A stretch of 61,590 nt of DNA from NCBI GenBank assembly GCA_030648615.1, contig JAUSHJ010000042.1:1-61590 (forward strand), written 5' to 3'. Both the position numbers and the translations under genes were made by a program. Under the pieces are notes generated by a model that was not told the DNA's origin, ran no database searches, and saw only the letters and a list, made by a program, of their open reading frames with translations. Source of the DNA: Candidatus Micrarchaeota archaeon. Lineage in GTDB: Archaea > Micrarchaeota > Micrarchaeia > Anstonellales > Bilamarchaeaceae. Each line of letters opens with the position of its first letter. The first letter of the stretch is position 1. Positions 1,453 through 59,832 of the stretch are shown piece by piece.

Positions 1453-1785
1453 CTATCTGTTTTCTAACATTTCTATTAGTTCAGAAGTAGTATAAACTCT
1501 TATTTTATTTTGCTCTTTAAAATGAGGGTCGTTGCTCCAGATATCTATTCTCTTAGCAGTTGCAAGTGCCAATAATGGAAGATCATCTTCATCTGAAATC
1601 TCGTTTTTAACTTTATCTATAAAACCAAAGTATTCTTCTTTTGGTATTATCTCTATTTCAGATCTCAGAAAAACTAGAGTTTTCGCTATAAATTCTTTAT
1701 CTAATCTATATTTGTTAGCTACTTGACCTACATATTCTTCAAGTTCCTCTATTTGATATTCAGTAGTGAATAGATGATTTGCCCA
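1453..1785 (-). pseudogene. 5'-truncated PIN-domain (VapC-like) remnant, paralogue of the 10669-11106 gene
   Basis: The minus-strand frame translates to 'HLFTTEYQIEELEE...IIPKEEYFGFIDKVKNEISDEDDLPLLALATAKRIDIWSNDPHFKEQNKIRVYTTSELIEMLENR'. This is collinear with residues ~29-145 of the intact PIN protein at 10669-11106. There is no start codon: the frame opens immediately after a TAA, and the first ~28 residues, including the N-terminal catalytic Asp, are absent. Confidence 0.6.
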
Positions 1786-1790
1786 TTAGG

Positions 1791-1925
1791 CCACCACAGC
1801 CTAAAGGCTGTGGTTTCATTAGGGCCGACGCGAATGTCGCAAAAGCGACATTGCGCCCATTGTCCAAAGGACAATTGGGAGGGCAAAGTTGTGTAAATTC
1901 GGCACTTCCCCCCAAGGTTAAAACC
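1791..1925. repeat. hairpin-cluster element (family B), copy at the gatD 5' junction
   Basis: Consecutive stem-loops: ccacagcc-taaa-ggctgtgg, aatgtcgc-aaaa-gcgacatt, and cccattgtcc-aaa-ggacaattggg (the CATTG/CAATTG asymmetric stem). Confidence 0.5.
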
Positions 1926-3008
1926 ATGAGTTTCCGTGCCGAATTGACACATGAAATTGCCATACTTGGTTGTGGTGGAACAATTGTAAGTAAAATAGAG
2001 TATAAAACAGGTGCAGTATTCCCTGCGATAGACCCTGAAGAAATAAAAACAGCATTTCCAAAAATAGAAACACTGGCAAAAATAACTACAAAACAAATTT
2101 TTTCTCTTCTTTCTGAAGACATGAACTCTTCCCATTGGTCCATTGCTGGAAAAGCAGTCATGGATAAAATAAGAGAGGGTGTAGAGGGCGTAGTTCTTAT
2201 GCACGGTACCGACACGATGCACTATAGTTCTGCAGCAATGAGCTTTATGATTCAGAATTTACCTATACCGGTTATTTTTGTAGGTTCGCAAAGAAGCAGT
2301 GACAGACCAAGCAGTGATAATGAAACTAATCTGTTAAATGCAGTTTATGCTGCAAAACAAAATTTTGCTGAAGTTGCAATATGTATGCATGCGAATACTA
2401 ACGACGATTATTGTAACCTAATTAGAGGAGTTAATGCAAGAAAATTGCATACATCTAAGAGAGATGCGTTTAAATCGGTAAATTCTCCTCCGCTTGCAAA
2501 AGTCAATTATATCAGCAATACTTTTGAATCTTTAACAGATATGAAAAAACGTGAAAAGAGAACACCTAAAACAGATTTCAAATTCAATGACAATGTCGCC
2601 ATGATATATGTCCATCCAAATATCCAGCCTAAATTCATCTCTAAACTATCTTCTTTTGACGGTATAGTGCTAATGGGTACTGGACTAGGACACGTACCCA
2701 CAAATCCGTTTGGAGATAGAAATGCCAGCCCAGTTATAAAAGAAGTGAAAGAACTTATAAATTCAGATATTCCAGTAGTTATGACACCCCAAACAATATT
2801 CGGAAGAGTCAACATGAATGTTTATACTGCCGGCAGATTGTTGAAAGAAGCAGGAGTGATCGGTGACGGATGTGATTGGACTCCTGAAACAGCTTTTGTA
2901 AAATTAAGCTGGATACTTGGACACACAAAGAAAATAGCCAAGGTAAAGGAAGAAATGCTTACTAACATGATTGGAGAAATCAGTGAGAGGAGTATAGTGG
3001 TTGATTAA
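1926..3008 (+). CDS. gatD: Glu-tRNA(Gln) amidotransferase subunit D (GatD), apparently lacking the usual N-terminal domain
   Basis: Asparaginase-type motifs 'ILGCGGTIVS', 'HGTDTM', 'GSQRSSDRPSSD'. Overlaps the gatE start. The frame is open upstream to a TTG at 1779, but that part is the hairpin element. The first ATG is at 1926, which gives 361 aa. Confidence 0.8.
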   Translation: MSFRAELTHEIAILGCGGTIVSKIEYKTGAVFPAIDPEEIKTAFPKIETLAKITTKQIFSLLSEDMNSSHWSIAGKAVMDKIREGVEGVVLMHGTDTMHYSSAAMSFMIQNLPIPVIFVGSQRSSDRPSSDNETNLLNAVYAAKQNFAEVAICMHANTNDDYCNLIRGVNARKLHTSKRDAFKSVNSPPLAKVNYISNTFESLTDMKKREKRTPKTDFKFNDNVAMIYVHPNIQPKFISKLSSFDGIVLMGTGLGHVPTNPFGDRNASPVIKEVKELINSDIPVVMTPQTIFGRVNMNVYTAGRLLKEAGVIGDGCDWTPETAFVKLSWILGHTKKIAKVKEEMLTNMIGEISERSIVVD

Positions 3009-4794
3009 CATGGTAAAAATAGGAATAGAAATTCATCAACGTATTGATACGAACAAGCTATTCTGCAACTGTTCGTCTACGATTTCAGATAGTGCTATTC
3101 CCAATAGTATAATATCCAGGAAGCTTCACCCCGTACTCAGCGAACTCGGGGAATTCGATAAAGCCGCTCTTGCAGAATATCAAAAAAATAGGATTTACGA
3201 ATACCAGTTATTCGATAAAAACACCTGCTTGGTAGAAACAGATGAAGAACCCCCTCATTCAATGAACAGTGATGCACTCATGATTGCACTCCAGATATCT
3301 ATGCATCTGAACTGCAAACTAGTAGATGAAGTCCACATCATGAGAAAAATGGTCATAGACGGCAGCAATACGTCTGGTTTTCAGAGAACATCTGTAATTG
3401 CCATGGGCGGATATATCGAAACGTCTAAAGGCAAGGTAAGTATAACTCAAATTGCAATAGAAGAAGAAAGCTCAGGTATAGTAGAAAACAAAGAATCAAA
3501 AGTCATTTATCGACTCGATAGATTGGGCATTCCGCTTATAGAAATAACTACTGACCCAGACATAAAAGATGCTCAGCATTTAGTAGAAGTTGCAGAGAAA
3601 ATTGGTTTACTATTAAGAGCTACTGGAAAAGTCGCAAGAGGTTTAGGCACAATAAGACAGGACGTCAACATATCTACAGAAGATGGCGCAAGGGTTGAGA
3701 TAAAGGGAGCCCAAGACTTAAAACTTTTACCAACACTCATGGAAACTGAAGTCAAACGTCAAAAAGAACTAATAAAGATATCCGGTGAGTTGAAAACAAA
3801 ATTTAATGGCAAAATTACAATACAACGAATATTTGTCAATATCACAAATGTTTTTGTCAATACCCAGGCACCAATGGTAAAAAATGGAATAGCTAATGGT
3901 GAAGTAGTTTATGGACTTCGATTGCAGCATTTGAAAGGAATTCTAGGCAGAGAACTTCAACCAAACAAAAGATACGGAACGGAACTAAGTGATTATGCAA
4001 AGACAGCTGGAGTAAAAGGAATAATACATAGCGATGAAACGCTAGAAAAGTATGGATTCGCAGAACAAGAAACGAGCTCGCTTAGGAAAACTCTGAATAT
4101 TGGAGATAATGATGCATTCGTCCTGGTTATTGCGAAAGAAGACGTAGCTAAAAGAGCACTGGAAAACGTTGCAAAAAGATGCGAAATGGATTTCGTTCCT
4201 GAAGAAACCCGGAAAGCAAATCCGGATGGAACTACTAATTATATGAGACCGCTTGCCGGAAAAGCAAGGATGTATCCTGAAACGGATGTCCCCCCTATAG
4301 CAATTGATGCTAAATTACTAAAAGAAGTTAAAGAAAATAAAAGTGAATCGTTAGATGAGAAAAAAGAGAAGCTTGCAAAAATCCTAAACAAAGAAATGGC
4401 AGAATCAATGCTAAGATCGAAGAATTTACAATTATTTGAGAAACTACTTTCATTAGATGTTGATCCTGTACTTATTGCTAATACGCTTGAGAATACAGTG
4501 GTTTCTCTCAGACGGGAAGGCATAGTTATTTCAGATCTTGAAATGGTAATGATTGATTTGTTTACTAATTACAAAAAAGGATTATTTGTAAAAGCTGCAA
4601 TTATAGAAATATTGAAGCACGTAAGCAAAGGAATGCCGGTAGGTGAAGCAGTAGAGAAGAACAATCTCGGAAAACTTTCCGGTGCTGAACTACAGAAAAT
4701 TGCACAGGAAAATAATTTTGATATCGCCAAGATAATGCAGAAATACAGATTGAGAATTGAACCTAGTGATGTGGCAAAGCTGAAGAAAAACTAG
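3001..4794 (+). CDS. gatE: Glu-tRNA(Gln) amidotransferase subunit E (GatE)
   Basis: N-terminus 'MVKIGIEIHQRI' of the GatB/E family, 597 aa. 8-nt overlap with gatD, the classic gatDE operon arrangement. Confidence 0.88.
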   Translation: MINMVKIGIEIHQRIDTNKLFCNCSSTISDSAIPNSIISRKLHPVLSELGEFDKAALAEYQKNRIYEYQLFDKNTCLVETDEEPPHSMNSDALMIALQISMHLNCKLVDEVHIMRKMVIDGSNTSGFQRTSVIAMGGYIETSKGKVSITQIAIEEESSGIVENKESKVIYRLDRLGIPLIEITTDPDIKDAQHLVEVAEKIGLLLRATGKVARGLGTIRQDVNISTEDGARVEIKGAQDLKLLPTLMETEVKRQKELIKISGELKTKFNGKITIQRIFVNITNVFVNTQAPMVKNGIANGEVVYGLRLQHLKGILGRELQPNKRYGTELSDYAKTAGVKGIIHSDETLEKYGFAEQETSSLRKTLNIGDNDAFVLVIAKEDVAKRALENVAKRCEMDFVPEETRKANPDGTTNYMRPLAGKARMYPETDVPPIAIDAKLLKEVKENKSESLDEKKEKLAKILNKEMAESMLRSKNLQLFEKLLSLDVDPVLIANTLENTVVSLRREGIVISDLEMVMIDLFTNYKKGLFVKAAIIEILKHVSKGMPVGEAVEKNNLGKLSGAELQKIAQENNFDIAKIMQKYRLRIEPSDVAKLKKN

Positions 4795-6089
4795 AGAGTA
4801 ATCTGCTTTCCTTTCCCAGAATCTTTTTTAGTCACTTTTTTAACAGTCTCTTCATTTATTATTTTAGTTTCTTCCTTCACTTCTTTAGATTCTTCCTTAG
4901 GTTTTCCGATCTTTAAATTCTCAACGCTCGTCCCCATTATAAATGCCATTTCGTCTTCTGTAAATTTATAGTGAAGCATTACGCGTTCAGTATCTTTAAC
5001 TCCGAATTCTTTTATTATAGGAATAAATATCCTTGCATCTCTTGAATTAGTATGTGTTACTTCTCCTATTTTTTTACCTATAGATTTGAGGATTGCCCTA
5101 GTAGACACAGTGCTAGCCATTTGGCGAAGGTAATTTGGAAATGAATATTTGGTAAATTTCCTGTAAACGCTTTTTTTTGATAATGCTACACCTGCACTTA
5201 CAAAATCCAGAGAGTATTTCAAATAACCCCAATGAGAATTTCTAATGCGACCTTCTAACTGATCTGCACGAGAAAGATAGTAGTATGCCATCGCCCTATC
5301 ATCTAAATTTTCATATTCTAATGGAATATTTTCGTCTACCCAAAGCTTTAGAATACTATAATCGACATCTCCAGAAACTGCCTTTTTAGCATCCTCATAT
5401 TTATCTGATTTGAATATGGATCTTATCCTTTCAAAAATATCTTTATCCCTATCACGCTGAGATGTAGACATACCTTGTAAATCATTAATAGAAGAACAGA
5501 CATCTCCGTTGCAGTTTTCTGCAATTGCATCAATCCTAGCATCATCAACTACGAGTTTTTCTTTCTCAGCAATTTTTTTAAGCAATAATTTTATAGAAGA
5601 CTTATTAACTTTTTTAAATTCTAAAAGCTCTGATTCTACTCTTATTGGAGCAATTTTCTTATCCCACGCATTAGTAGCTGTAAGTATTATTGGTTGATTC
5701 GAATCTCTTAATAATTTTGCTATTGCTGGAATTCCCCCTGAATCACTCCTCTGAAATGCATCTATGTCGTCTATGAGAAATATTTTCTTTCTTCCACTTA
5801 AAGAACCTGCCAATGTAGCAGCAGTCAATATTTTTTCAACTCTATCTTTATTTCTAAGTTCATTTGCTCCCATTTCAATTAGTTCTAAATCAAATTCTTC
5901 TTTTAAAGCATGAGCAGTGGAACTCTTTCCTGTACCTACTGCACCATAGAGCAATAGAGACTTTTTCCTTACACCGTTCATCCAGTTTAATGCCCACTGA
6001 CGTATTCGTGTAAGCTGTTCATCATTGCCAATTATTTCACTAAGTTTTTTAGGTGAATATTTTTGTGTAAATAACGTTCTATTTTCCAT
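4791..6089 (-). CDS. rfcL: replication factor C large subunit
   Basis: 'KYSPKKLSEIIGN', Walker A 'GAVGTGKSS', 'FLIDDID'. AAA+ clamp-loader architecture, 432 aa. Confidence 0.8.
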   Translation of the reverse strand: MENRTLFTQKYSPKKLSEIIGNDEQLTRIRQWALNWMNGVRKKSLLLYGAVGTGKSSTAHALKEEFDLELIEMGANELRNKDRVEKILTAATLAGSLSGRKKIFLIDDIDAFQRSDSGGIPAIAKLLRDSNQPIILTATNAWDKKIAPIRVESELLEFKKVNKSSIKLLLKKIAEKEKLVVDDARIDAIAENCNGDVCSSINDLQGMSTSQRDRDKDIFERIRSIFKSDKYEDAKKAVSGDVDYSILKLWVDENIPLEYENLDDRAMAYYYLSRADQLEGRIRNSHWGYLKYSLDFVSAGVALSKKSVYRKFTKYSFPNYLRQMASTVSTRAILKSIGKKIGEVTHTNSRDARIFIPIIKEFGVKDTERVMLHYKFTEDEMAFIMGTSVENLKIGKPKEESKEVKEETKIINEETVKKVTKKDSGKGKQITL

Positions 6090-12482: not shown

Positions 12483-12592
12483 CTATTCTACTGTAAATTC
12501 TATCGATGTTAAAGATTTCTTCTTTAACAGTTGTAAATCATAAAGTAATTTGCTCGAATTTACAACAGGACAAATTCTTCGCAAATTTGTCC
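12483..12592 (+). repeat. MITE-like repeat, copy 1 (family A)
   Basis: Imperfect terminal inverted repeats ctgtaaattctatcga...tcgaatttacaacag. Central hairpin gttaaag-atttctt-ctttaac. Adjacent hairpin ggacaaatt-cttcgca-aatttgtcc. Near-identical copies at 30398 and 59688, and a short one at 22500. Confidence 0.6.
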
Positions 12593-12628
12593 TTTTTATT
12601 ATATTTTATTATTTTTATTTTATCTATT

Positions 12629-21293: not shown

Positions 21294-21473
21294 GCAGGGG
21301 TGGCGGAGCGGTCAAACGCGGCAGACTCAAGATCTCATAAGTTCCTTACTCGAATGTGAGAAAGGAAATCTGTTGGCCTAGCGCCTACACAGGTTCAAAG
21401 ACCACCTTTCTTTTTCCAAAAGAAAGCTAGTCGCACCAAAGAAAAAGGTGGTATGAAAATCCTGTCCCCTGCA
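21294..21473 (+). tRNA. tRNA-Leu(CAA), type II, with two putative introns (canonical 37/38 and one in the T-loop)
   Basis: Acceptor gcagggg/cccctgc (7 WC). Anticodon stem gcaga only pairs with tctgt about 36 nt downstream; loop ctCAAg gives anticodon CAA. T-stem acagg pairs with cctgt only after removing ~60 nt that follow 'ttcaaa'. Long variable arm. Confidence 0.55.
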
Positions 21474-22267: not shown

Positions 22268-22499
22268 ATAATACTATCTCAGAAGTACTATATAAATGTT
22301 ACTATTGATGATGTTTTATGCAGATTTACGGTTATTGCCCCGCCAATAGCCTAACCTCGTTCAGGCCAGCATTTATATAGAACGAGTGTTGGATTTACCT
22401 CGACAAAGAGGGCAAAAAACAAGGTTGCGTCCTCAGAGCTGGTCAGGGGGTTTGCCCCCTGCAAATTTTGTTTACAAAATTGCGGTGCTTTGTTTGTAA

Positions 22500-22553
22500 G
22501 GACAAATTGATAAGAAATTTGTCCTGTTGTAAATTCGATAGAATTTACTATAG
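22500..22553 (-). repeat. MITE-like repeat, short copy (TIRs joined, central part deleted)
   Basis: The reverse complement reads ctatagtaaattctatcgaatttacaacaggacaaatttcttatcaatttgtcc, i.e. the family-A termini without the core. Confidence 0.5.
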
Positions 22554-27720: not shown

Positions 27721-27736
27721 ATGCTGGTAAATGCTA

Positions 27737-27794
27737 GACAAGCTTGTCGCTCAGAGCGACAAGATGTCCATTGTTCGATATGTCGAACAATTGG
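27737..27794. repeat. hairpin element (family B), intergenic copy
   Basis: cttgtcgc-tcaga-gcgacaag, then ccattgttcga-tatg-tcgaacaattgg (asymmetric stem). About 85% identical over 40 nt to the copy inside argS. Confidence 0.55.
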
Positions 27795-27814
27795 AAGGTA
27801 GAGGCTAGAACGTT

Positions 27815-29559: not shown

Positions 29560-30150
29560 AACGAGTAATTAAAAGCTTCTGAATACTAAGCATATATGGG
29601 CTAGATTGGGGCCAGGGGTCCCAGCACCGTACATCCCCTTTAGACGGGTCGAAGACCCGGGGCGTTATATAATTCTAAGATGCCTTCTGTTTTAAGCGTC
29701 GATGCTCTGCCTCATATGGCAGTCTTTACGCATCAACCGAGCCAGATCGAAAGAAGCAACTCTAAATGCATAAAACTGTGCTTGTGAGATACAGAGTGGA
29801 GCTGATGGCAGAAGCTCCTTCTTAGTGTTACTATGGCCAACCGGGATGCCCATTTTGAAACAAAATGGGCTGAATTTACTAACAAGTAAATCGGATGCCC
29901 ACTCTACTTATGATAAACTAAGGTTCGTGGACCTTTGACGTGTATTCACGTCAAAATTTGTCACGATTTTTTTGCCCTCGTGACAACCCTTCCTAGTCTT
30001 CAGTTTCGCTTATAGACGGAATTCCAGTCAGTTTGCCCTAAAGGCAAATCCCTCGAGCATAGCTCTCGGTCACTCCGCTATCGCTACGTGACAGCCAACA
30101 CGTATCTGTTCTTTCTTGTAAATCGTCAACTGTCGAAAAAAACTACATAA
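29560..30150. other. ORF-free, hairpin-rich ~600-bp region; candidate structured ncRNA or degraded gene
   Basis: No ORF of 60 aa or more on either strand. GC-rich core at 29595-29660 (ggggccaggggtccc..., cgggtc-gaa-gacccg). Downstream hairpins ttgacgtg-tattc-acgtcaaa, tttgcc-ctaaa-ggcaaa, and the 29-bp IR element. Confidence 0.25.
29958..29987. repeat. 29-bp inverted-repeat element, copy 2 (inverted relative to copy 1)
   Basis: tttgtcacga-tttttttgccc-tcgtgacaa, the exact reverse complement of 24568-24598. Confidence 0.55.
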
Positions 30151-30397: not shown

Positions 30398-30490
30398 TTA
30401 TTCTACTATAAATTCTATCGATGTTAAAGAATTCTTCTTTAACAGTTGTAAATCGCAAATAGATTTACTCGAATTTACAACAGGACAAAA
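30398..30490 (+). repeat. MITE-like repeat, copy 3 (family A)
   Basis: About 90% identical to 12483-12592 over ~95 nt. Confidence 0.6.
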
Positions 30491-30499
30491 TTTCCCGAC

Positions 30500-30585
30500 A
30501 CGATTGTTGCTCGTGGCAACAATTGCGTGGGCACAATTATTTTCCGCAGAAAATAATGTGCATTGACGCGTTTTCGCGTCAATTG
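30500..30585. repeat. hairpin element (family B-like) appended to MITE copy 3
   Basis: cgattgttgc-tcgt-ggcaacaattgcg, gcacaattatttt-ccgcag-aaaataatgtgc, and cattgacgcg-tttt-cgcgtcaattg. All three show the CATTG/CAATTG one-nt asymmetry. Confidence 0.5.
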
Positions 30586-30645
30586 TATCTTTTTCCTAAT
30601 TGGAAAAAGTTTGTTATCATTTTGTCCTTTTATTATCTTTTTATA

Positions 30646-37693: not shown

Positions 37694-40651
37694 ATGGCAC
37701 AAAGACTTGAAGTAAATATTAAGAGCAACATTAAGGATGTTGTAGGCGACGGAGTACTGGCCAGAGTTAAAAATGAATTGAATATTACACTTTCTTCAGT
37801 TAATTTCGTAGAAGCGTATAACATAGATGCCGATCGAGAAGTTCGAGGAACTTCGAAAGATGTGACCGAAGGTCACACTGAGTTATCAGAAGAAGAACTT
37901 GATAAACTTGGCAGAGAAGTTTTTGCAGATATTATAATTCAGGATTGTAACTACAAACAAACTACTTTTTCAGATAAATGGAGAATTGAAATCGGTTACT
38001 TGCCAGGTGTAACTGACAACGTAGGAAATACCGCAAGAGAAGCGATTTACGATGCTCTGGGAAAAAATGTAGATGTTTACTACTCACGAGTTTTTGCAAT
38101 TGAAGGAAAGGAAATTGAAGAACATGACTGCCAAAAAATCGCTGCGTTGCTCCATAATCAGCTTATTGAAAAGGCAATGATCAATAAACCAAATGATTTG
38201 ATAGTCCCATATATTCCAAAAGTAATCCTCAAGCATGAACCACACATAGAAAAAATAATGTTGCCAGTATCAGAAGCAAAACTCAGACTACTTGCAAAAG
38301 AACGGCTACTCGCTTTAAGCATAGATGAATTTAAAACAATAAAAATATATTTAAAAGAGCCACAAGTAATTGAGGAAAGAAAAAGAGTAGGTCTAGACCA
38401 TAGACTTACTGATGTAGAATTAGAAGCGATAGCACAGACATGGAGTGAACATTGCAAACATAAAATATTCAACGCTGAAATAAATTATATTGAAAATGGA
38501 GAACCTCATGCAATAAACTCTATATTTTCAACATTCATAAGAGGAGCAACAGAAACAGTAAAAAAACCGTATATAGTGAGCGTATTCAAGGATAATGGAG
38601 GAATAATAAAATTCAACCATGATTATGATATCTCTGTAAAAGTAGAAACACATAATGCACCAAGTGCTCTGGATCCTTACGGAGGAGCATTAACTGGAAT
38701 ACTAGGTGTACAGAGAGACATTCTTGGGACCGGTATTGGATCTTTACCAATAGCTAACCTAGATGTATTGTGTTTTGGATATCCTAACGAAACCCATGTG
38801 CCAAAAGGAATAATACACCCAAAAAGAATCTACCAAGGAGTAACAAAAGGAATTGAACATGGTGGAAATAAAATGGGTATTCCTACGGTTAATGGATCAA
38901 TAACGTTTGAACACGGATTTACTGCACGACCATTGGTTTATTGTGGGACAATCGGAATCATGCCATCTAAAATAGGCGATAAAAAAACCTGTGAAAAACA
39001 CATAAAACCTGGATACCTCGCAGTAATGGTCGGTGGAAGAATAGGCAAAGACGGCATTCATGGTGCAACTTTTTCTTCTCAGCAAATAGATGAAACCGTC
39101 CCACAAAGTGTTGTTCAGATAGGAGATCCGATAACTCAAAAGAAAGTTCTTGATTTTGTAATAGAAGCACGAGATTTACAATTGTATGAAGCTATAACAG
39201 ACAATGGTGCAGGCGGCATATCTTCAAGCATTGGAGAACTTGCACAACTTAGCAATGGTTGTGAAATATATCTGGAAAAATGCCCATTAAAATATGTGGG
39301 ATTAAATCCTTGGGAAATATTAGTTAGTGAATCGCAAGAGAGAATGACGCTCGCAGTGCCTATGGAAAAATTAGCAGAATTACAAAAAATAGCCAGGAAA
39401 CATGCTACCGAAGTAACAGTAGTTGGTAAATTTACTAACAGTGGAAAATTCCACGTAATGTTTAGAGATATTACAGCTGCTTATCTTGATCTTAGATTCC
39501 TTCACGAAGGTTTACCACAATTAAAACTCAGTGCAGAATGGAAAAGAAAGGTATTTCCTGAACCTTCAATAATTGAAACTGATCTTGGGATAATATTAGA
39601 AAGATTATTGGCATCTCCAAACATCGCATCGAAAGAAGAAGTTATTCGTAGATATGATCATGAAGTGAAAGGCATGAGCGTCATAAAACCATTGATGCGA
39701 GGACCTAATGACGCTGGCGTAATAAAACCGGTATACTCAAGTGACGAAGGACTCGTAATAGCGCATGGGATTTGTCCCAAATATATCCAAGACAGCTATG
39801 ACATGAGTTGCATGGCATTTGATGAAGCTGTACGGAATGCGATTGCAGTAGGAGCAAAATTCGGTTACATGGCTTGTTTGGATAATTTCTCCTGGCCAGA
39901 CCCAGTTAAATCTGATAAAAATCCAGATGGAGAATATAAATTAGCTCAGCTTATTAGATCATGTATTGCAATTTATGAAATGGCAACAGATTATGGTGTT
40001 CCGATAATTTCTGGAAAAGACAGCATGAAAAATGATTACTTTTACGGAGATGTGAAATACTCCATACCTCCAACACTTCTAATCACTGTTGTCGGAAAGA
40101 TAGATGATGTAAAAAAAGCAGTGAGTGCTGATTTAAAACAAGCTGGAGATTACATTTACGTTCTTGGAAAAACCAGGGATGAATTGGGCGGTAGCGAGTA
40201 TTACAAATTATTCAATGGACTAGGAGATAAAAATCCCAAAGTACACAGAGAAGAATGCATACCACTCTATCGTGCTCTTGGAAAGACAATGGAAGATGGA
40301 TTGGTTTCCAGTTGCCACGATGTAAGTGATGGTGGTTTAGCAATTGCACTTGCAGAATGCACATTTGGCACCGGACTTGGTGCAGATTTAGACATTTCAC
40401 TTATACCCAGAGAAAACGAGAAAGAAGATGTACTTTTATTCTCCGAAAGCGCAGGAAGATTTGTTGTTTCGGTTAATGAAAAGAATGTTTCTGCTTTTGA
40501 GAAAGCGATGCATGGAACTAATTTTGCAAAGGCTGGCAGAGTTCGAGGAGATAAAAGATACATAATAAGAAGCGGGGAGAGACTTGTAATAAACAAAGAA
40601 GTGGAAACACTTAGGAACGAGTGGCTAAGCTTAGGGAAGAGGGTTTCTTGA
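37694..40651 (+). CDS. purL: FGAM synthase II (PurL) with an N-terminal tandem PurS-like extension
   Basis: 'WSEHCKHKIF' and AIRS-like domains. The first ~160 aa form two PurS-like modules ('RLEVNIKSNIKDVVGDGVLARV...', 'RIEIGYLPGVTDNVGNTAREAIYDALG...'). 985 aa. Confidence 0.8.
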   Translation: MAQRLEVNIKSNIKDVVGDGVLARVKNELNITLSSVNFVEAYNIDADREVRGTSKDVTEGHTELSEEELDKLGREVFADIIIQDCNYKQTTFSDKWRIEIGYLPGVTDNVGNTAREAIYDALGKNVDVYYSRVFAIEGKEIEEHDCQKIAALLHNQLIEKAMINKPNDLIVPYIPKVILKHEPHIEKIMLPVSEAKLRLLAKERLLALSIDEFKTIKIYLKEPQVIEERKRVGLDHRLTDVELEAIAQTWSEHCKHKIFNAEINYIENGEPHAINSIFSTFIRGATETVKKPYIVSVFKDNGGIIKFNHDYDISVKVETHNAPSALDPYGGALTGILGVQRDILGTGIGSLPIANLDVLCFGYPNETHVPKGIIHPKRIYQGVTKGIEHGGNKMGIPTVNGSITFEHGFTARPLVYCGTIGIMPSKIGDKKTCEKHIKPGYLAVMVGGRIGKDGIHGATFSSQQIDETVPQSVVQIGDPITQKKVLDFVIEARDLQLYEAITDNGAGGISSSIGELAQLSNGCEIYLEKCPLKYVGLNPWEILVSESQERMTLAVPMEKLAELQKIARKHATEVTVVGKFTNSGKFHVMFRDITAAYLDLRFLHEGLPQLKLSAEWKRKVFPEPSIIETDLGIILERLLASPNIASKEEVIRRYDHEVKGMSVIKPLMRGPNDAGVIKPVYSSDEGLVIAHGICPKYIQDSYDMSCMAFDEAVRNAIAVGAKFGYMACLDNFSWPDPVKSDKNPDGEYKLAQLIRSCIAIYEMATDYGVPIISGKDSMKNDYFYGDVKYSIPPTLLITVVGKIDDVKKAVSADLKQAGDYIYVLGKTRDELGGSEYYKLFNGLGDKNPKVHREECIPLYRALGKTMEDGLVSSCHDVSDGGLAIALAECTFGTGLGADLDISLIPRENEKEDVLLFSESAGRFVVSVNEKNVSAFEKAMHGTNFAKAGRVRGDKRYIIRSGERLVINKEVETLRNEWLSLGKRVS

Positions 40652-40890: not shown

Positions 40891-42747
40891 ATGCTAACCA
40901 AAATCAAACACCACATAGCTAAAATGCTGGCAGATGCTGCAGATATTAGTGAAGAGAAAACTTTTTCTAGCCTTGAATTACCTAAGAACGAGTTTGGAGA
41001 CCTGACTAGCAAGATTGCATTTGTGCTTGCAAGTGAGCAAAAAAAGAATCCGATGGAGATTGCTAACAGTATCGTTGTGAAACTTCCCAAAGACGAATAC
41101 GTTGCCAAGGTCGAAACTAAAGGTCCATACATAAACTTCTATTTATCTGATAAATTTTACTCTGAACAGGCAAACGAAATAGTAAAATTGAAGGATAAAT
41201 TTGGTATAGGTAAAAAAACAAATAAAAAAGTTATGATAGAATATTTCCATGCAAATACTCACAAGGGCGTGCATATAGGTCACATACGAAACATCTCAAT
41301 AGGAGAAGCATTGGCAAGAACGCTTGAATTTGCAGGTAACAAAGTGATAAGAGCTAATTTTCAAGGAGACATAGGCATGCATGTTGCCAAATGTCTCTGG
41401 GGTTTCATTAATATTTACCATGAAAAAGCTCCAGAAGAAAACCGCGGTGTTTGGTTAGGTAAAGTTTATTCTGAAGCTTCCGGAATGACAAAAGGAAACG
41501 AAGAACTAGAAACCCAGGTCAAAGATATTAACGTCAAGCTTTATACAGGAGATAAGAAACTTACAGCCCTATTGAAAAAAACAAGACAATGGTGTCTTGA
41601 TGATTTTAAAGAATTTTACAAAGAATTTGGAGTAACGTTTGATGAACTTTATTTCGAGAGTGAAACTGAAAAAATAGGGACAAAAATAGTTATGGAAGCA
41701 CTCAAGAAAGGAATAGCAAAGGAAGACCAAGGTGCGATAATAATGGACCTTAAAGATGATGGTCTCGGAGTATACGTACTAATTACTAAAGAAGGCTACC
41801 CGCTCTATTCAACCAAAGATATCGGTCTTGCAAAAATAAAGTTCGACAAATATAAACTTGACAGAAGCATTCATCTCGTTGGAAAAGAACAGGAATTCCA
41901 TTTCATGCAGCTCTTCAAGGCTTTCGAAAAATTAGGCATGGAAAAAGCTGCCAAAGTTTCCTACCACCTCATTTATGATTTAGTTATGCTTCCGGAAGGT
42001 AAAATGTCCTCACGGGAAGGAACGATGGTGCTTTACGAGGATTTGAAGACTAAACTAATGGAACTAACTCGCGTTGAAGTAAAGAAAAGACATGAAGACT
42101 GGGATGCGAAACAAGTAGAAGAAACCGCAAGAAAAATAGCTTTTGCTGCATTGAAGTTTTCCATGGTAAGGAAAGAGAATAACAGGATTATAGTATTTGA
42201 CTGGAATGAAGCATTAAATCTTGAAGGAGATTCTGGACCATACTTACAGTATGCATATGTACGTACTAACGGCATTCTTGAAGGTTATAAAACTTCAAGA
42301 GATGTGGCCAACAAGCTTGTTGTTCAGAGCAACAAGATGTCCACGCAATTGTCGAGCGCGACAATGCGCACATTGTTCGAAACATCGAACAATTGTGTTG
42401 TTGCATTGCAACAATCGGAAGGCCACACCGATATAGAGAAAGCTGGGAAAAAAGAAATAAACGTTAAAGGATATAGTTACACTAATGAAGAGAAAAAACT
42501 CGTTAAACTGCTTTCTGAATTCCCGGAGGTTATTGAGAGGACTGCCAGCCACCTCAGTACAAACACTTTGGCGCAGTATTTGTTAGAAGTAGCATCATTT
42601 TTCAATAAGTTTTATGCATCTTCCCCAGTGCTAAATGCTGAAAAAGAAGATGAAAGAAATGCTAGACTAGAAATAGTAAAGGCAACCAATACCGTATTGA
42701 AGAGTGGACTGAGTTTACTCGGAATAGAATGTCCAGAAAAAATGTAA
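40891..42747 (+). CDS. argS: arginyl-tRNA synthetase, carrying an in-frame hairpin-element insertion
   Basis: HIGH-like 'HANTHKGVHIGHIRN', 'GKMSSREG' (KMSKS), DALR-type C-terminus. 618 aa. Confidence 0.88.
   Translation: MLTKIKHHIAKMLADAADISEEKTFSSLELPKNEFGDLTSKIAFVLASEQKKNPMEIANSIVVKLPKDEYVAKVETKGPYINFYLSDKFYSEQANEIVKLKDKFGIGKKTNKKVMIEYFHANTHKGVHIGHIRNISIGEALARTLEFAGNKVIRANFQGDIGMHVAKCLWGFINIYHEKAPEENRGVWLGKVYSEASGMTKGNEELETQVKDINVKLYTGDKKLTALLKKTRQWCLDDFKEFYKEFGVTFDELYFESETEKIGTKIVMEALKKGIAKEDQGAIIMDLKDDGLGVYVLITKEGYPLYSTKDIGLAKIKFDKYKLDRSIHLVGKEQEFHFMQLFKAFEKLGMEKAAKVSYHLIYDLVMLPEGKMSSREGTMVLYEDLKTKLMELTRVEVKKRHEDWDAKQVEETARKIAFAALKFSMVRKENNRIIVFDWNEALNLEGDSGPYLQYAYVRTNGILEGYKTSRDVANKLVVQSNKMSTQLSSATMRTLFETSNNCVVALQQSEGHTDIEKAGKKEINVKGYSYTNEEKKLVKLLSEFPEVIERTASHLSTNTLAQYLLEVASFFNKFYASSPVLNAEKEDERNARLEIVKATNTVLKSGLSLLGIECPEKM
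42309..42416. repeat. hairpin element (family B) lying in-frame inside argS
   Basis: cttgttgttcagagcaacaag, cgcaattgtcg-agcg-cgacaatgcg, cacattgttcga-aaca-tcgaacaattgtg, and ttgttgcattgcaacaa. Possible TIR-like flanks gatgtggcc / ggccacacc. Confidence 0.5.
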
Positions 42748-46683: not shown

Positions 46684-46775
46684 ATGTTTGTCTGCAAAAT
46701 CCTTGACGCAATTGTCATGCTTGACAATGCACCCATTGTTCGTTGCAACGAACAATTGGGAGTTGCCGCAACTTC
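46684..46775. repeat. hairpin element (family B) apparently inserted into the 3' flank of the lipoprotein paralogue, flanked by AAGT direct repeats
   Basis: gcaattgtca-tgct-tgacaatgc, cccattgttcgttg|caacgaacaattggg, and agttgc-cgcaact. AAGT at 46680-83 and 46776-79. The downstream 'cccttcttcccagct' matches the 3' flank of paralogue 1 at 46222-46236. Confidence 0.55.
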
Positions 46776-59593: not shown

Positions 59594-59687
59594 TAATTAT
59601 TCCCCTCATATTAGTTATAATTAATGTTATTATGTAGCAATTTATTTATAAATGTACCTATGGATAAGTATAAAAGGATAGTAGGAG

Positions 59688-59790
59688 GACAAATTGATAC
59701 AGAATTTGTACTGTTGTAAATTCGAGTAAATCTATTTTAGATTTACAACTGTTAAAAAAACAAATTTTTTAACATCGATAGAATTTACAG
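59688..59790 (-). repeat. MITE-like repeat, copy 4 (family A, inverted orientation)
   Basis: The reverse complement matches 12483-12592, including the TIRs and central hairpin. Confidence 0.6.
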
Positions 59791-59832
59791 TACAATTAAA
59801 AAATAAAATCAGCCTTCACGCAAGGGACTAAA

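Follow-up and report, generated by a model that had tools for sequence, protein, structure and literature searches.

An extra in-frame segment in arginyl-tRNA synthetase

The window analysed here, the complete 61,590-bp contig JAUSHJ010000042.1 of a Candidatus Micrarchaeota archaeon (GC 36%), carries argS, the gene for arginyl-tRNA synthetase (ArgRS), whose product is 100% identical to MDO8554137.1 from a Candidatus Micrarchaeota archaeon metagenome-assembled genome (MAG) at NCBI. A cluster of hairpins lies inside this gene. An original prediction, made from the letters of the DNA, had proposed that four successive stem-loops sit between the catalytic core and the anticodon-binding domain with the frame unbroken. 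We found four perfect hairpins (42316-42336, 42348-42365, 42372-42393 and 42398-42414) within 42316-42414, and the open reading frame (ORF) of 618 aa runs across them without a stop codon or a frameshift, its translation matching the peptide quoted. The Pfam domains of ArgRS (N-terminal, residues 4-85; catalytic, 97-438; DALR, 517-618) place the insert in the linker joining the catalytic and DALR domains. Ordinary housekeeping genes make up the neighbourhood, namely purS-purL, argS, a RIO kinase gene, aIF genes, CDC48, gatD and the gene for S-adenosylhomocysteine (AdoHcy) hydrolase.

The hairpin cluster is real and far beyond chance. The RNA fold of a 136-nt argS region reached -53.4 kcal/mol (z = -5.3), a value equalled by 0 of 200 shuffles, and the DNA fold of this region gave z = -7.0 relative to shuffles. 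In both folds an outer stem of 7 bp surrounds the hairpins, with TGTGGCC (42303-42309) paired to GGCCACA (42421-42427).

We aligned the window ArgRS with 24 orthologues sharing 48-74% identity (alignment A1). Between '...YVRTNGIL' and 'Y.F..EEKKL' the window protein alone carries a long extra stretch, of which ~43-50 residues are missing from all 24 orthologues at exactly the spot where an indel had been anticipated. In the ArgRS of Pyrococcus horikoshii (2zue), 23 residues stand opposite 66 in the window protein. The linker is variable, with short extra segments in the orthologues P0002 and P0007. As for its extent, the element had been set at 42309-42416; the hairpins are indeed there, but the inserted DNA is larger (42277-42432) and compound. 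AlphaFold2, run with the A1 alignment, returned a mean predicted local distance difference test (pLDDT) value of 87.5 for ArgRS. Values across residues 471-530 were 79, 64, 48, 30, 27 and 59, against a mean of ~90 for the remainder of ArgRS and >90 in the flanking domains, and high confidence returned at the first DALR helix (residue 532). In this model, the insert appears as a flexible, low-confidence extra loop of ~52 residues.

The nearest argS relative, at 69% identity, lies in a syntenic purL-argS-RIO locus of GCA_023247775.1 (L052; L and P numbers denote loci and proteins outside the window). No family unit was found at its argS site, only small tandem hairpins of its own, and this locus therefore offers no clean empty site for argS. 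Around 3159 and 4269 this locus has two extra segments of its own, the tandem hairpins of the linker, which form a 27-nt repeat (GTCG..CGAC / GTCAC..GTGAC), and a stretch of 18 aa, EGRTTVKNKTQNSRPKTQ, inserted near residue 110.

Structure of the argS insert

The purS-purL gene of the same window holds what looks like the uninvaded form of the argS site (Table 1). With 42310-42417 taken out, the argS insert is 48 nt long and aligns without gaps to the purL piece, with 34 of 48 positions identical and the same codon phase (LEGYKTSRDVA/EGHTD, the slash marking the junction). Both consist of a hairpin a followed by a hairpin b. The outer stem in argS is homologous to the unsplit purL hairpin b, from which it differs by one compensatory pair. 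The purL piece adds REVRGTSKDVTEGHTE (residues 48-63) to the protein, and all 13 aligned homologues lack these residues (alignment A5). The junction motif AACTTCRARAGATGTGRCC occurs within the window only in argS and purS-purL, and the a+b piece was not matched in 102 other loci. Among viral contigs, the a+b pattern gave one match (L103), which has no hairpin and looks like chance.

The 108 nt enclosed by the outer stem comprise the four hairpins M1 to M4, and five of the six reading frames of this cluster are free of stop codons. M1, which had been singled out as a 'cttgtYgY...Racaag' hairpin to be sought elsewhere, recurs at 27738 (the hairpin at 27743-27763), in L014/L087 and in L062. On the minus strand M2 reads CATTGTCG..CGACAATTG, and M2 together with M3 makes up the covariance model match in argS. 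M1 and M3 align with the units at 27729-27799, L014 4767-4834 and L062 4876-4946 (alignment A4); over 62 positions, argS hairpins 1 and 3 are identical to the intergenic unit at 52 (84%), with one compensatory pair change, close to the ~85% over 40 nt first given for the copy at 27737-27794. A hairpin 2 of the M4 type (CATTGTTGC-AGA-GCAACAATTG) directly follows M1 in L014 4767-4834. Read from these alignments, the argS insert is a nest, that is, an a+b piece whose hairpin b was apparently split later, at its 5' stem-loop border, by two double-hairpin units.

Table 1 Features of the argS insert, its paralogue and related repeats (window positions unless a locus is named).
Feature	Position	Strand	Basis or remark
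argS ORF, 618 aa, host gene	40891-42747	+	ORF call, Pfam
Whole inserted segment, 156 nt = 52 codons, residues 463-514 (LEGYKTSRDVA...SEGHTD)	42277-42432	+	orthologue alignment
First hairpin (a) in the 48-nt a+b piece, GAAGGTT-ATAA-AACTTC, with one bulge	42280-42296	+	ungapped match to purL GAAGTTC-GAG-GAACTTC
Hairpin b 5' arm = outer stem TGTGGCC	42303-42309	+	pairs with 42421-42427, both folds
Four-hairpin cluster nested in hairpin b, 108 nt = 36 codons, encodes NKLVVQSNKMSTQLSSATMRTLFETSNNCVVALQQS	42310-42417	+
Hairpin M1, CTTGTTGT-TCAGA-GCAACAAG, 'type B' hairpin 1 of unit	42316-42336	+	perfect 7-bp stem
Hairpin M2, GC-A-ATTGTCG-AGCG-CGACAAT-GC, M3-type in inverted orientation	42345-42367	+
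Hairpin M3, C-ATTGTTCGA-AACA-TCGAACAAT-TG, conserved hairpin 2 of family	42371-42395	+
Hairpin M4, TTGTTGC-ATT-GCAACAA, variant hairpin 2	42398-42414	+
Loop remnant GAA + hairpin b 3' arm GGCCACA	42418-42427	+
Paralogous 48-nt a+b piece in purS-purL, uninvaded form of argS site	37835-37882	+	in frame
purL hairpin a, GAAGTTC-GAG-GAACTTC	37838-37854
purL hairpin b, TGTGACC-GAA-GGTCACA	37861-37877
Unit in argS (M2+M3)	42334-42401	+	R1 56.3 bits
Unit, M1+M3 type, intergenic, between CDC48 gene and next ORF	27729-27799	+	R1 77.8 bits
Unit, intergenic between two convergent genes, downstream gene AdoHcy hydrolase	46697-46764	+	R1 62.7 bits
Unit within ~150-nt composite repeat overlapping gatD start	1819-1883	+	R1 52.3 bits, outside training set
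Unit in three- to four-hairpin cluster (30499-30609) nested in family-2 terminal hairpin	30522-30591	+	R1 39.7 bits
hydE insert, 57-nt inverted pair of units in HypC-HydE fusion gene	metagenome locus L095, 11448-11504		compared with L104, L105
Family-2 copy	12486-12606
Family-2 copy	30399-30645
Family-2 copy	59680-59800	reverse
Family-2 copy, partial	22499-22550

A family of double-hairpin units

What recurs is a double-hairpin unit, ~60-65 nt in length. In hairpin 1 the ~9-bp stem is free in sequence with Watson-Crick pairing throughout, and the stem of hairpin 2, CATTGTTCG...CGAACAATTG, is strongly conserved. Two flavours of linker stand ahead of hairpin 2, GACC-[stem]-GGTC and ACRMRC-[stem]-GYGCC, and GG(A/G)(G/A) follows it; every Micrarchaeota-type copy has the ~9-bp hairpin at a fixed distance before M3. 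A unit may stand alone, in a tandem array, in an inverted pair (L009, L085, L095 and L098) or in a stack with other small hairpins.

Within the window, the CATTGTTCG...CGAACAATTG hairpin occurs exactly three times (27769, 42371 and 46734), and variant stems of the CATTG...CAATTG form stand at 1858 and 30561. We searched the exact M3 pattern CATTGTTCG-N-CGAACAATTG in one genome per GTDB species and in the JGI metagenomes. The genomes yielded 51 loci, 12 of them from Micrarchaeota or Bilamarchaeaceae MAGs (GC 40-60%) and the other 39 from scattered bacteria, which by estimate is about chance level. In the metagenomes 49 contigs matched; ~25 show the Micrarchaeota two-hairpin anatomy, and the remainder are singletons or come from three conserved but unrelated bacterial loci. 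Viral contigs had no match to the hairpin-2 pattern. Further copies of the motif, which the prediction had named as something to look for, were thus present at three exact sites in the window, 12 Micrarchaeota loci and ~25 metagenome contigs.

A covariance model of the unit (R1), run with filters off, recovered exactly five loci in the window at 40-78 bits, the best scores all on the + strand, with the next locus at 13.5 bits. They are the same five places that the prediction had named, among them the regions 1791-1925, 30500-30585 and 46684-46775, already suspected to hold the same family, and outside the window R1 matched 40+ units in other loci. Most units are intergenic (4 of the 5 in the window and most of 36 copies elsewhere), and only about 5-10% of the sampled copies lie in genes. 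The window as a whole is rich in perfect hairpins, with 62 of stem >=7 bp where 34 +/- 6 were expected and 20 of stem >=9 bp where 2.5 were expected.

Pairing was counted for the two-hairpin structure in an alignment of 40 units (A3). In this alignment 88% of cells were paired, compared with 69% in shuffles, and the covariation score was 0.453, compared with 0.129 in shuffles and <=0.129 in slid-partner controls. Eleven of the 13 pairs of hairpin 1 vary on both sides. G-T/G-U pairs account for ~1% of cells and are no commoner than other mismatches.

The family had been suspected to be undescribed in this lineage, and our searches agree. Rfam, run on the whole window at gathering thresholds and on L023 at permissive E-values, matched only the signal recognition particle (SRP) RNA and nothing at the hairpins, and no paper on palindromic or hairpin repeats of Micrarchaeota came up in a literature search. 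A HMMER search of the 57-aa insert peptide against 1.84 billion representative proteins had no match, the query being too short and modular to be informative. The SRP RNA (29596-29853, +) matches the bacterial large SRP model at 75.9 bits in this archaeal contig, and the 800 nt downstream of it are dense in hairpins and hold one small ORF.

A conserved, covarying structure with a very stable RNA fold could also point to a role in RNA, in which the units would mark transcript ends or stabilise transcripts (as terminator-like or protein-binding stem-loops) and the argS copy would be a cis-regulatory mRNA structure. In keeping with this explanation, the + strand holds all five units of the window, and a + strand gene precedes each of the four between genes. 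However, among the 36 copies elsewhere the orientation with respect to the upstream gene has no clear bias (~19 same, ~12 opposite), and in-ORF copies occur in both orientations (hydE, below). The near-absence of G-U pairs is unusual for helices selected as RNA, and no Rfam family matches. In L010, L021 and L033, moreover, the unit follows oligo-T tracts and stands just before a TATA-like box, and so probably lies between transcription units. An RNA-level role is thus unlikely as the main explanation, though intergenic copies may have one; such a role and a mobile origin are not mutually exclusive. Nothing in the analysis speaks for a small-RNA role.

The distribution of the units also bears on the simplest account of the argS segment, an ordinary lineage-specific insertion selected for ArgRS function in which the hairpins are incidental. 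The variability of the linker, with the short extra segments of P0002 and P0007, would fit such an insertion. However, unrelated genes, intergenic DNA and a tRNA intervening sequence all hold these same DNA modules. The z-scores of the folds are extreme, and the model shows the peptide as disordered. The intergenic copies effectively refute this account.

Evidence for movement of the units

A clean pair of filled and empty sites comes from a HypC-HydE fusion gene in metagenome locus L095, in which an inverted pair of units adds 19 residues, QLFDESNNGPLVASADQLD, between codons that are adjacent in the closest relatives. These relatives, P0243 (82% identity) and P0242 (85%), have no insert; the empty site of P0243 reads ...YPGKTQD/IKTQDTIRETL... 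(slash at the insertion point), and P0242 is slightly different there. Eleven further homologues also lack the 19 residues. At the DNA level, the flanks of the insert are identical to the empty site in L104 (the locus of P0243) at 82 of 88 and 69 of 75 positions. The insert sits 3' of GGAC and ends in GGAC, so that this tetranucleotide stands on both sides, although in this single case the second may be the element's own end; the argS cluster sits 3' of GGCC, the sites compared being few.

Nesting was also seen outside argS. The window contains a second repeat family of ~110 nt with three or four AT-rich hairpins (TGTTAAAGA.., GTAAATC.., AGGACAAATT..). The terminal hairpin of this family, AGGACAAATT..AATTTGTCCT, is unbroken in the copies at 12486-12606 and 59680-59800 and is split at 30478-30628 by a cluster of family-1 hairpins. 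New copies often lie within or next to the loop of an older hairpin, which gives rise to the 'outer stems'. A ~150-nt composite containing a unit is common to the window (1779-1960) and L098 (1640-1790), where the neighbouring genes are different, and the two composites differ by hairpin-sized indels. The composite consists of an outer stem TTTGCCC/GGGCAAA, the unit and a hairpin GTGTAAATTCGG..CCGAATTGACAC; the window copy covers the start codon of gatD (1926) and the first ~10 codons. The filled and empty hydE sites, the nested cluster and the comparison of argS with purL support mobility of the units.

Hairpins could instead be made in place, by template switching during replication at quasi-palindromes, and accumulate in permissive linkers. 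Perfect, purely Watson-Crick stems and new hairpins within the loops of old ones would fit such a process, and L052 has different, tandemly duplicated small hairpins at the same argS linker. On the other hand, linker and stem sequences beyond what pairing needs are common to copies at unrelated loci and in genomes of GC 36-65%, M1+M3 of argS are 84% identical to 27729-27799, and in hydE an entire family unit was set between adjacent codons. In-place origin is thus very unlikely in our estimation.

Tolerance inside genes

Three inserts in genes were available for comparison, those of argS (156 nt, as 48 + 108), purS-purL (48 nt) and hydE (57 nt), and each has a length divisible by three and no stop codon. 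ArgRS has its insert in the inter-domain linker, the PurS-like domain has one in a loop, and HydE has one in the BATS domain near the C-terminal end. Stop codons are depleted in the units on both strands; in the 62-nt cores of the 40 A3 units, 4.45 of 6 frames are open, compared with 2.07 in shuffled cores and 2.27 in random 62-mers of the window. Multiple-of-three, stop-free pieces in surface linkers would leave the gene functional, with the insert translated as a flexible loop, and we infer that the in-frame argS insert is translated rather than removed. Two further copies may lie in ORFs, one in L087 9584-10489 (-) / L014, within a 302-aa ORF that has no Pfam match (..ANVAAATLRPLTDKLVASSDKVPIVAEQQLGG..), and one in L090 4394-5089 (-), upstream of an Hsp20 domain.

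Interpretation

Our preferred reading, to which we assign a probability of roughly three in four, is that the argS insert is a nest of non-autonomous hairpin DNA repeats that are widespread in Micrarchaeota and are translated in permissive loops. They would resemble either repetitive extragenic palindromic (REP) sequences and bacterial interspersed mosaic elements (BIMEs) or Rickettsia palindromic elements (RPEs). The family is best read as new for archaea. A 48-nt two-hairpin piece, as in purS-purL, would have entered the inter-domain linker of ArgRS, and 108 nt made up of two units would later have entered the loop of its second hairpin.

Watson-Crick-only covariation, perfect stems, free loops and conserved nucleotides at the hairpin foot argue for a DNA-level element that may be recognised as a folded single strand. 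By analogy, our guess at the driver is a transposase of the HUH/Y1 type, of the IS200/IS605 or the REP-associated tyrosine transposase (RAYT) kind, that would recognise hairpins in single-stranded DNA (ssDNA) and act in trans. The 21-25 nt hairpins fit the 20-25 nt subterminal hairpins bound by IS200/IS605 TnpA.

Several points weigh against this reading. A single filled/empty site is clean at the DNA level, and any target rule (insertion 3' of GGAC, or a 4-nt duplication) therefore rests on one case. The near-invariance of hairpin 2 in A3 is partly circular, because the loci were fetched by its exact sequence; relaxed searches give compensatory variants of it (CATTGAACG.., CATTGTCC.., CATTGACGCG.., CAGTGGACG..). 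No argS relative is closer than 69% identity, and paralogues therefore served to reconstruct which event in argS came first. Translation of the argS insert is deduced from its frame-keeping, stop-free length. In the data examined, the 61.6-kb contig and 8-kb loci, no transposase was found among the nine window ORFs flanking units or among the 25 most frequent of 151 Pfam families (150 ORFs near units in 29 other loci), an absence that is uninformative if the enzyme is single-copy and trans-acting; neither the window nor the loci showed a parent autonomous element with matching ends. Finally, the organism splices non-canonical introns, as the T-loop intron of a tRNA-Leu gene in the window illustrates.

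This last point invites the explanation that the argS insert is a bulge-helix-bulge intron, cut out by the archaeal splicing endonuclease and absent from the protein. The tRNA-Leu(CAA) gene, located by hand at 21294-21473 (+), has two introns, one of 36 nt (21332-21367) at the canonical position 37/38 and one of 60 nt (21400-21459) in the T-loop at 59/60 with a near-canonical bulge-helix-bulge (hBHBh'). ARAGORN calls tRNA-Leu(caa) on the 84-mer spliced in silico and no tRNA on the unspliced window. A perfect 9-bp hairpin is nested in the inner helix of the second intron. A unit itself lies in an intervening sequence in L023, where a 375-nt tRNA gene (4760-5135; GGGCCCG...CGGGCCC followed by a T-tract) has at least three long intervening sequences. 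The one in the D-loop, which holds the unit, is bulge-helix-bulge-like (helix GCUC/GAGU, bulges AGU and ACC), and its inner helix UGUGCC/GGCGCA resembles the outer stem of argS. Endonucleases of the ARMAN type are reportedly of broad specificity.

At argS, however, the outer stem is 7 continuous bp. Hand inspection and folds showed no arrangement of two 3-nt bulges and a 4-bp helix, in either geometry, at the argS or the purL insert, the tRNA-Leu intron at 21400-21459 serving as a positive control. The multiple-of-three, stop-free lengths of all three gene inserts are predicted by translation and not required by splicing. Both observations make splicing of the argS insert highly improbable. 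A tRNA-like nature of the clusters was also considered and dropped, as ARAGORN called no tRNA on the window or on L023.

A larger version of the translated-repeat reading would be a phylum-wide, long-lived ssDNA hairpin system, the archaeal counterpart of RAYT and its paired REP elements (REPINs). Its stop-free units would repeatedly turn into translated loops of essential enzymes and, lodged in the inner hairpins of bulge-helix-bulge introns, would inflate and perhaps even seed the unusual multi-intron tRNA genes. We regard this version as tentative and rather doubtful.

To our knowledge, protein-coding palindromic repeats have so far been treated mainly as a Rickettsia curiosity. The same behaviour in ultra-small, host-dependent archaea suggests a recurrent outcome of reduced genomes, and the family may offer a second, independent system in which to see how selfish DNA turns into protein sequence. 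We know of no REP/RAYT-like systems in archaea, and the family gives a handle on a possible hairpin-based transposition system there. In practical terms, they point to sites in ArgRS, PurSL and HydE that are permissive, and they lengthen annotated proteins. Similar hairpins occur in tRNA introns, and intron-rich tRNA genes escape standard tRNA finders. The repeats are also likely to disturb the assembly and binning of genomes of DPANN archaea.

Comparison with known systems

Mitochondrial double-hairpin elements and GC clusters are small mobile two-hairpin units that enter the spacers, the introns and at times the coding regions of compact genomes. Unlike the present family they are organellar and eukaryotic, and the likeness is one of description alone.

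[quoted passage not shown] They have terminal inverted repeats (TIRs) and target duplications and derive from known insertion sequences, whereas single units here seem to lack TIRs, their ends being different (GACC.. at one end, ..TTGGAG at the other); for an inverted pair such as that in hydE, CCAATTG/CAATTGG ends follow from the pairing itself. A census of archaeal MITEs based on TIRs names only other DPANN lineages and would probably miss the units, because MITEs are defined there by TIRs.

The TnpA transposase of IS200/IS605 elements binds subterminal hairpins of 20-25 nt and cuts next to a target tetranucleotide, and IS200-type TnpA is present in archaea (PMC6006769). The units share with these elements, and with those resembling palindrome-associated transposable elements (PATE-like), hairpins of 20-25 nt of the ssDNA type, Watson-Crick pairing and no need for TIRs; insertion beside a specific tetranucleotide, as with IS200/IS605, may have one example (the hydE insert 3' of GGAC). 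They differ in that neither a linked tnpA or tnpB gene nor a full-length parent was seen here. The position of all five window units on one strand is only suggestive of a replication-linked orientation bias.

With REP, BIME and REPIN clusters the family has in common palindromes of 20-40 nt (here 21-25), a mostly extragenic location, clustering often in alternating orientation (M2/M3; the inverted pairs of L009, L085, L095 and L098), a conserved stem with a free loop, and persistence within a lineage. The GTAG/CGTC tag at the hairpin foot is absent here (in A3, units start with GACC or ACRMRC, and hairpin 2 starts with C-ATTG); stems are perfect, and a partner hairpin of free sequence is obligatory. 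In one survey (PMC6006769), RAYT-type genes were seen only in bacteria and the RAYT subclasses were absent from the archaea covered; none was found in the data examined here.

RPEs, to which the prediction had likened the argS element, are short palindromic repeats with stable folds in a reduced, host-dependent genome. Like the units, they occur both between genes and in frame in unrelated genes (here argS, purS-purL and hydE) whose orthologues lack the segment, and one element may be used in a single reading frame in different genes (here purSL and argS). Their insertions fall at sites compatible with the protein fold, and for three of ten RPE families nearly half of the copies are in genes (PMC10969869). 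An RPE is one long imperfect palindrome of ~100-150 bp, whereas the units here are modular, nested arrays of perfect 21-25 nt hairpins of presumably unrelated sequence in an archaeal host. Given that host, the likeness holds as an analogy of behaviour and not as membership. By analogy, the family thus appears closest to RPEs in behaviour and closest to REP/BIME/REPIN clusters in architecture.

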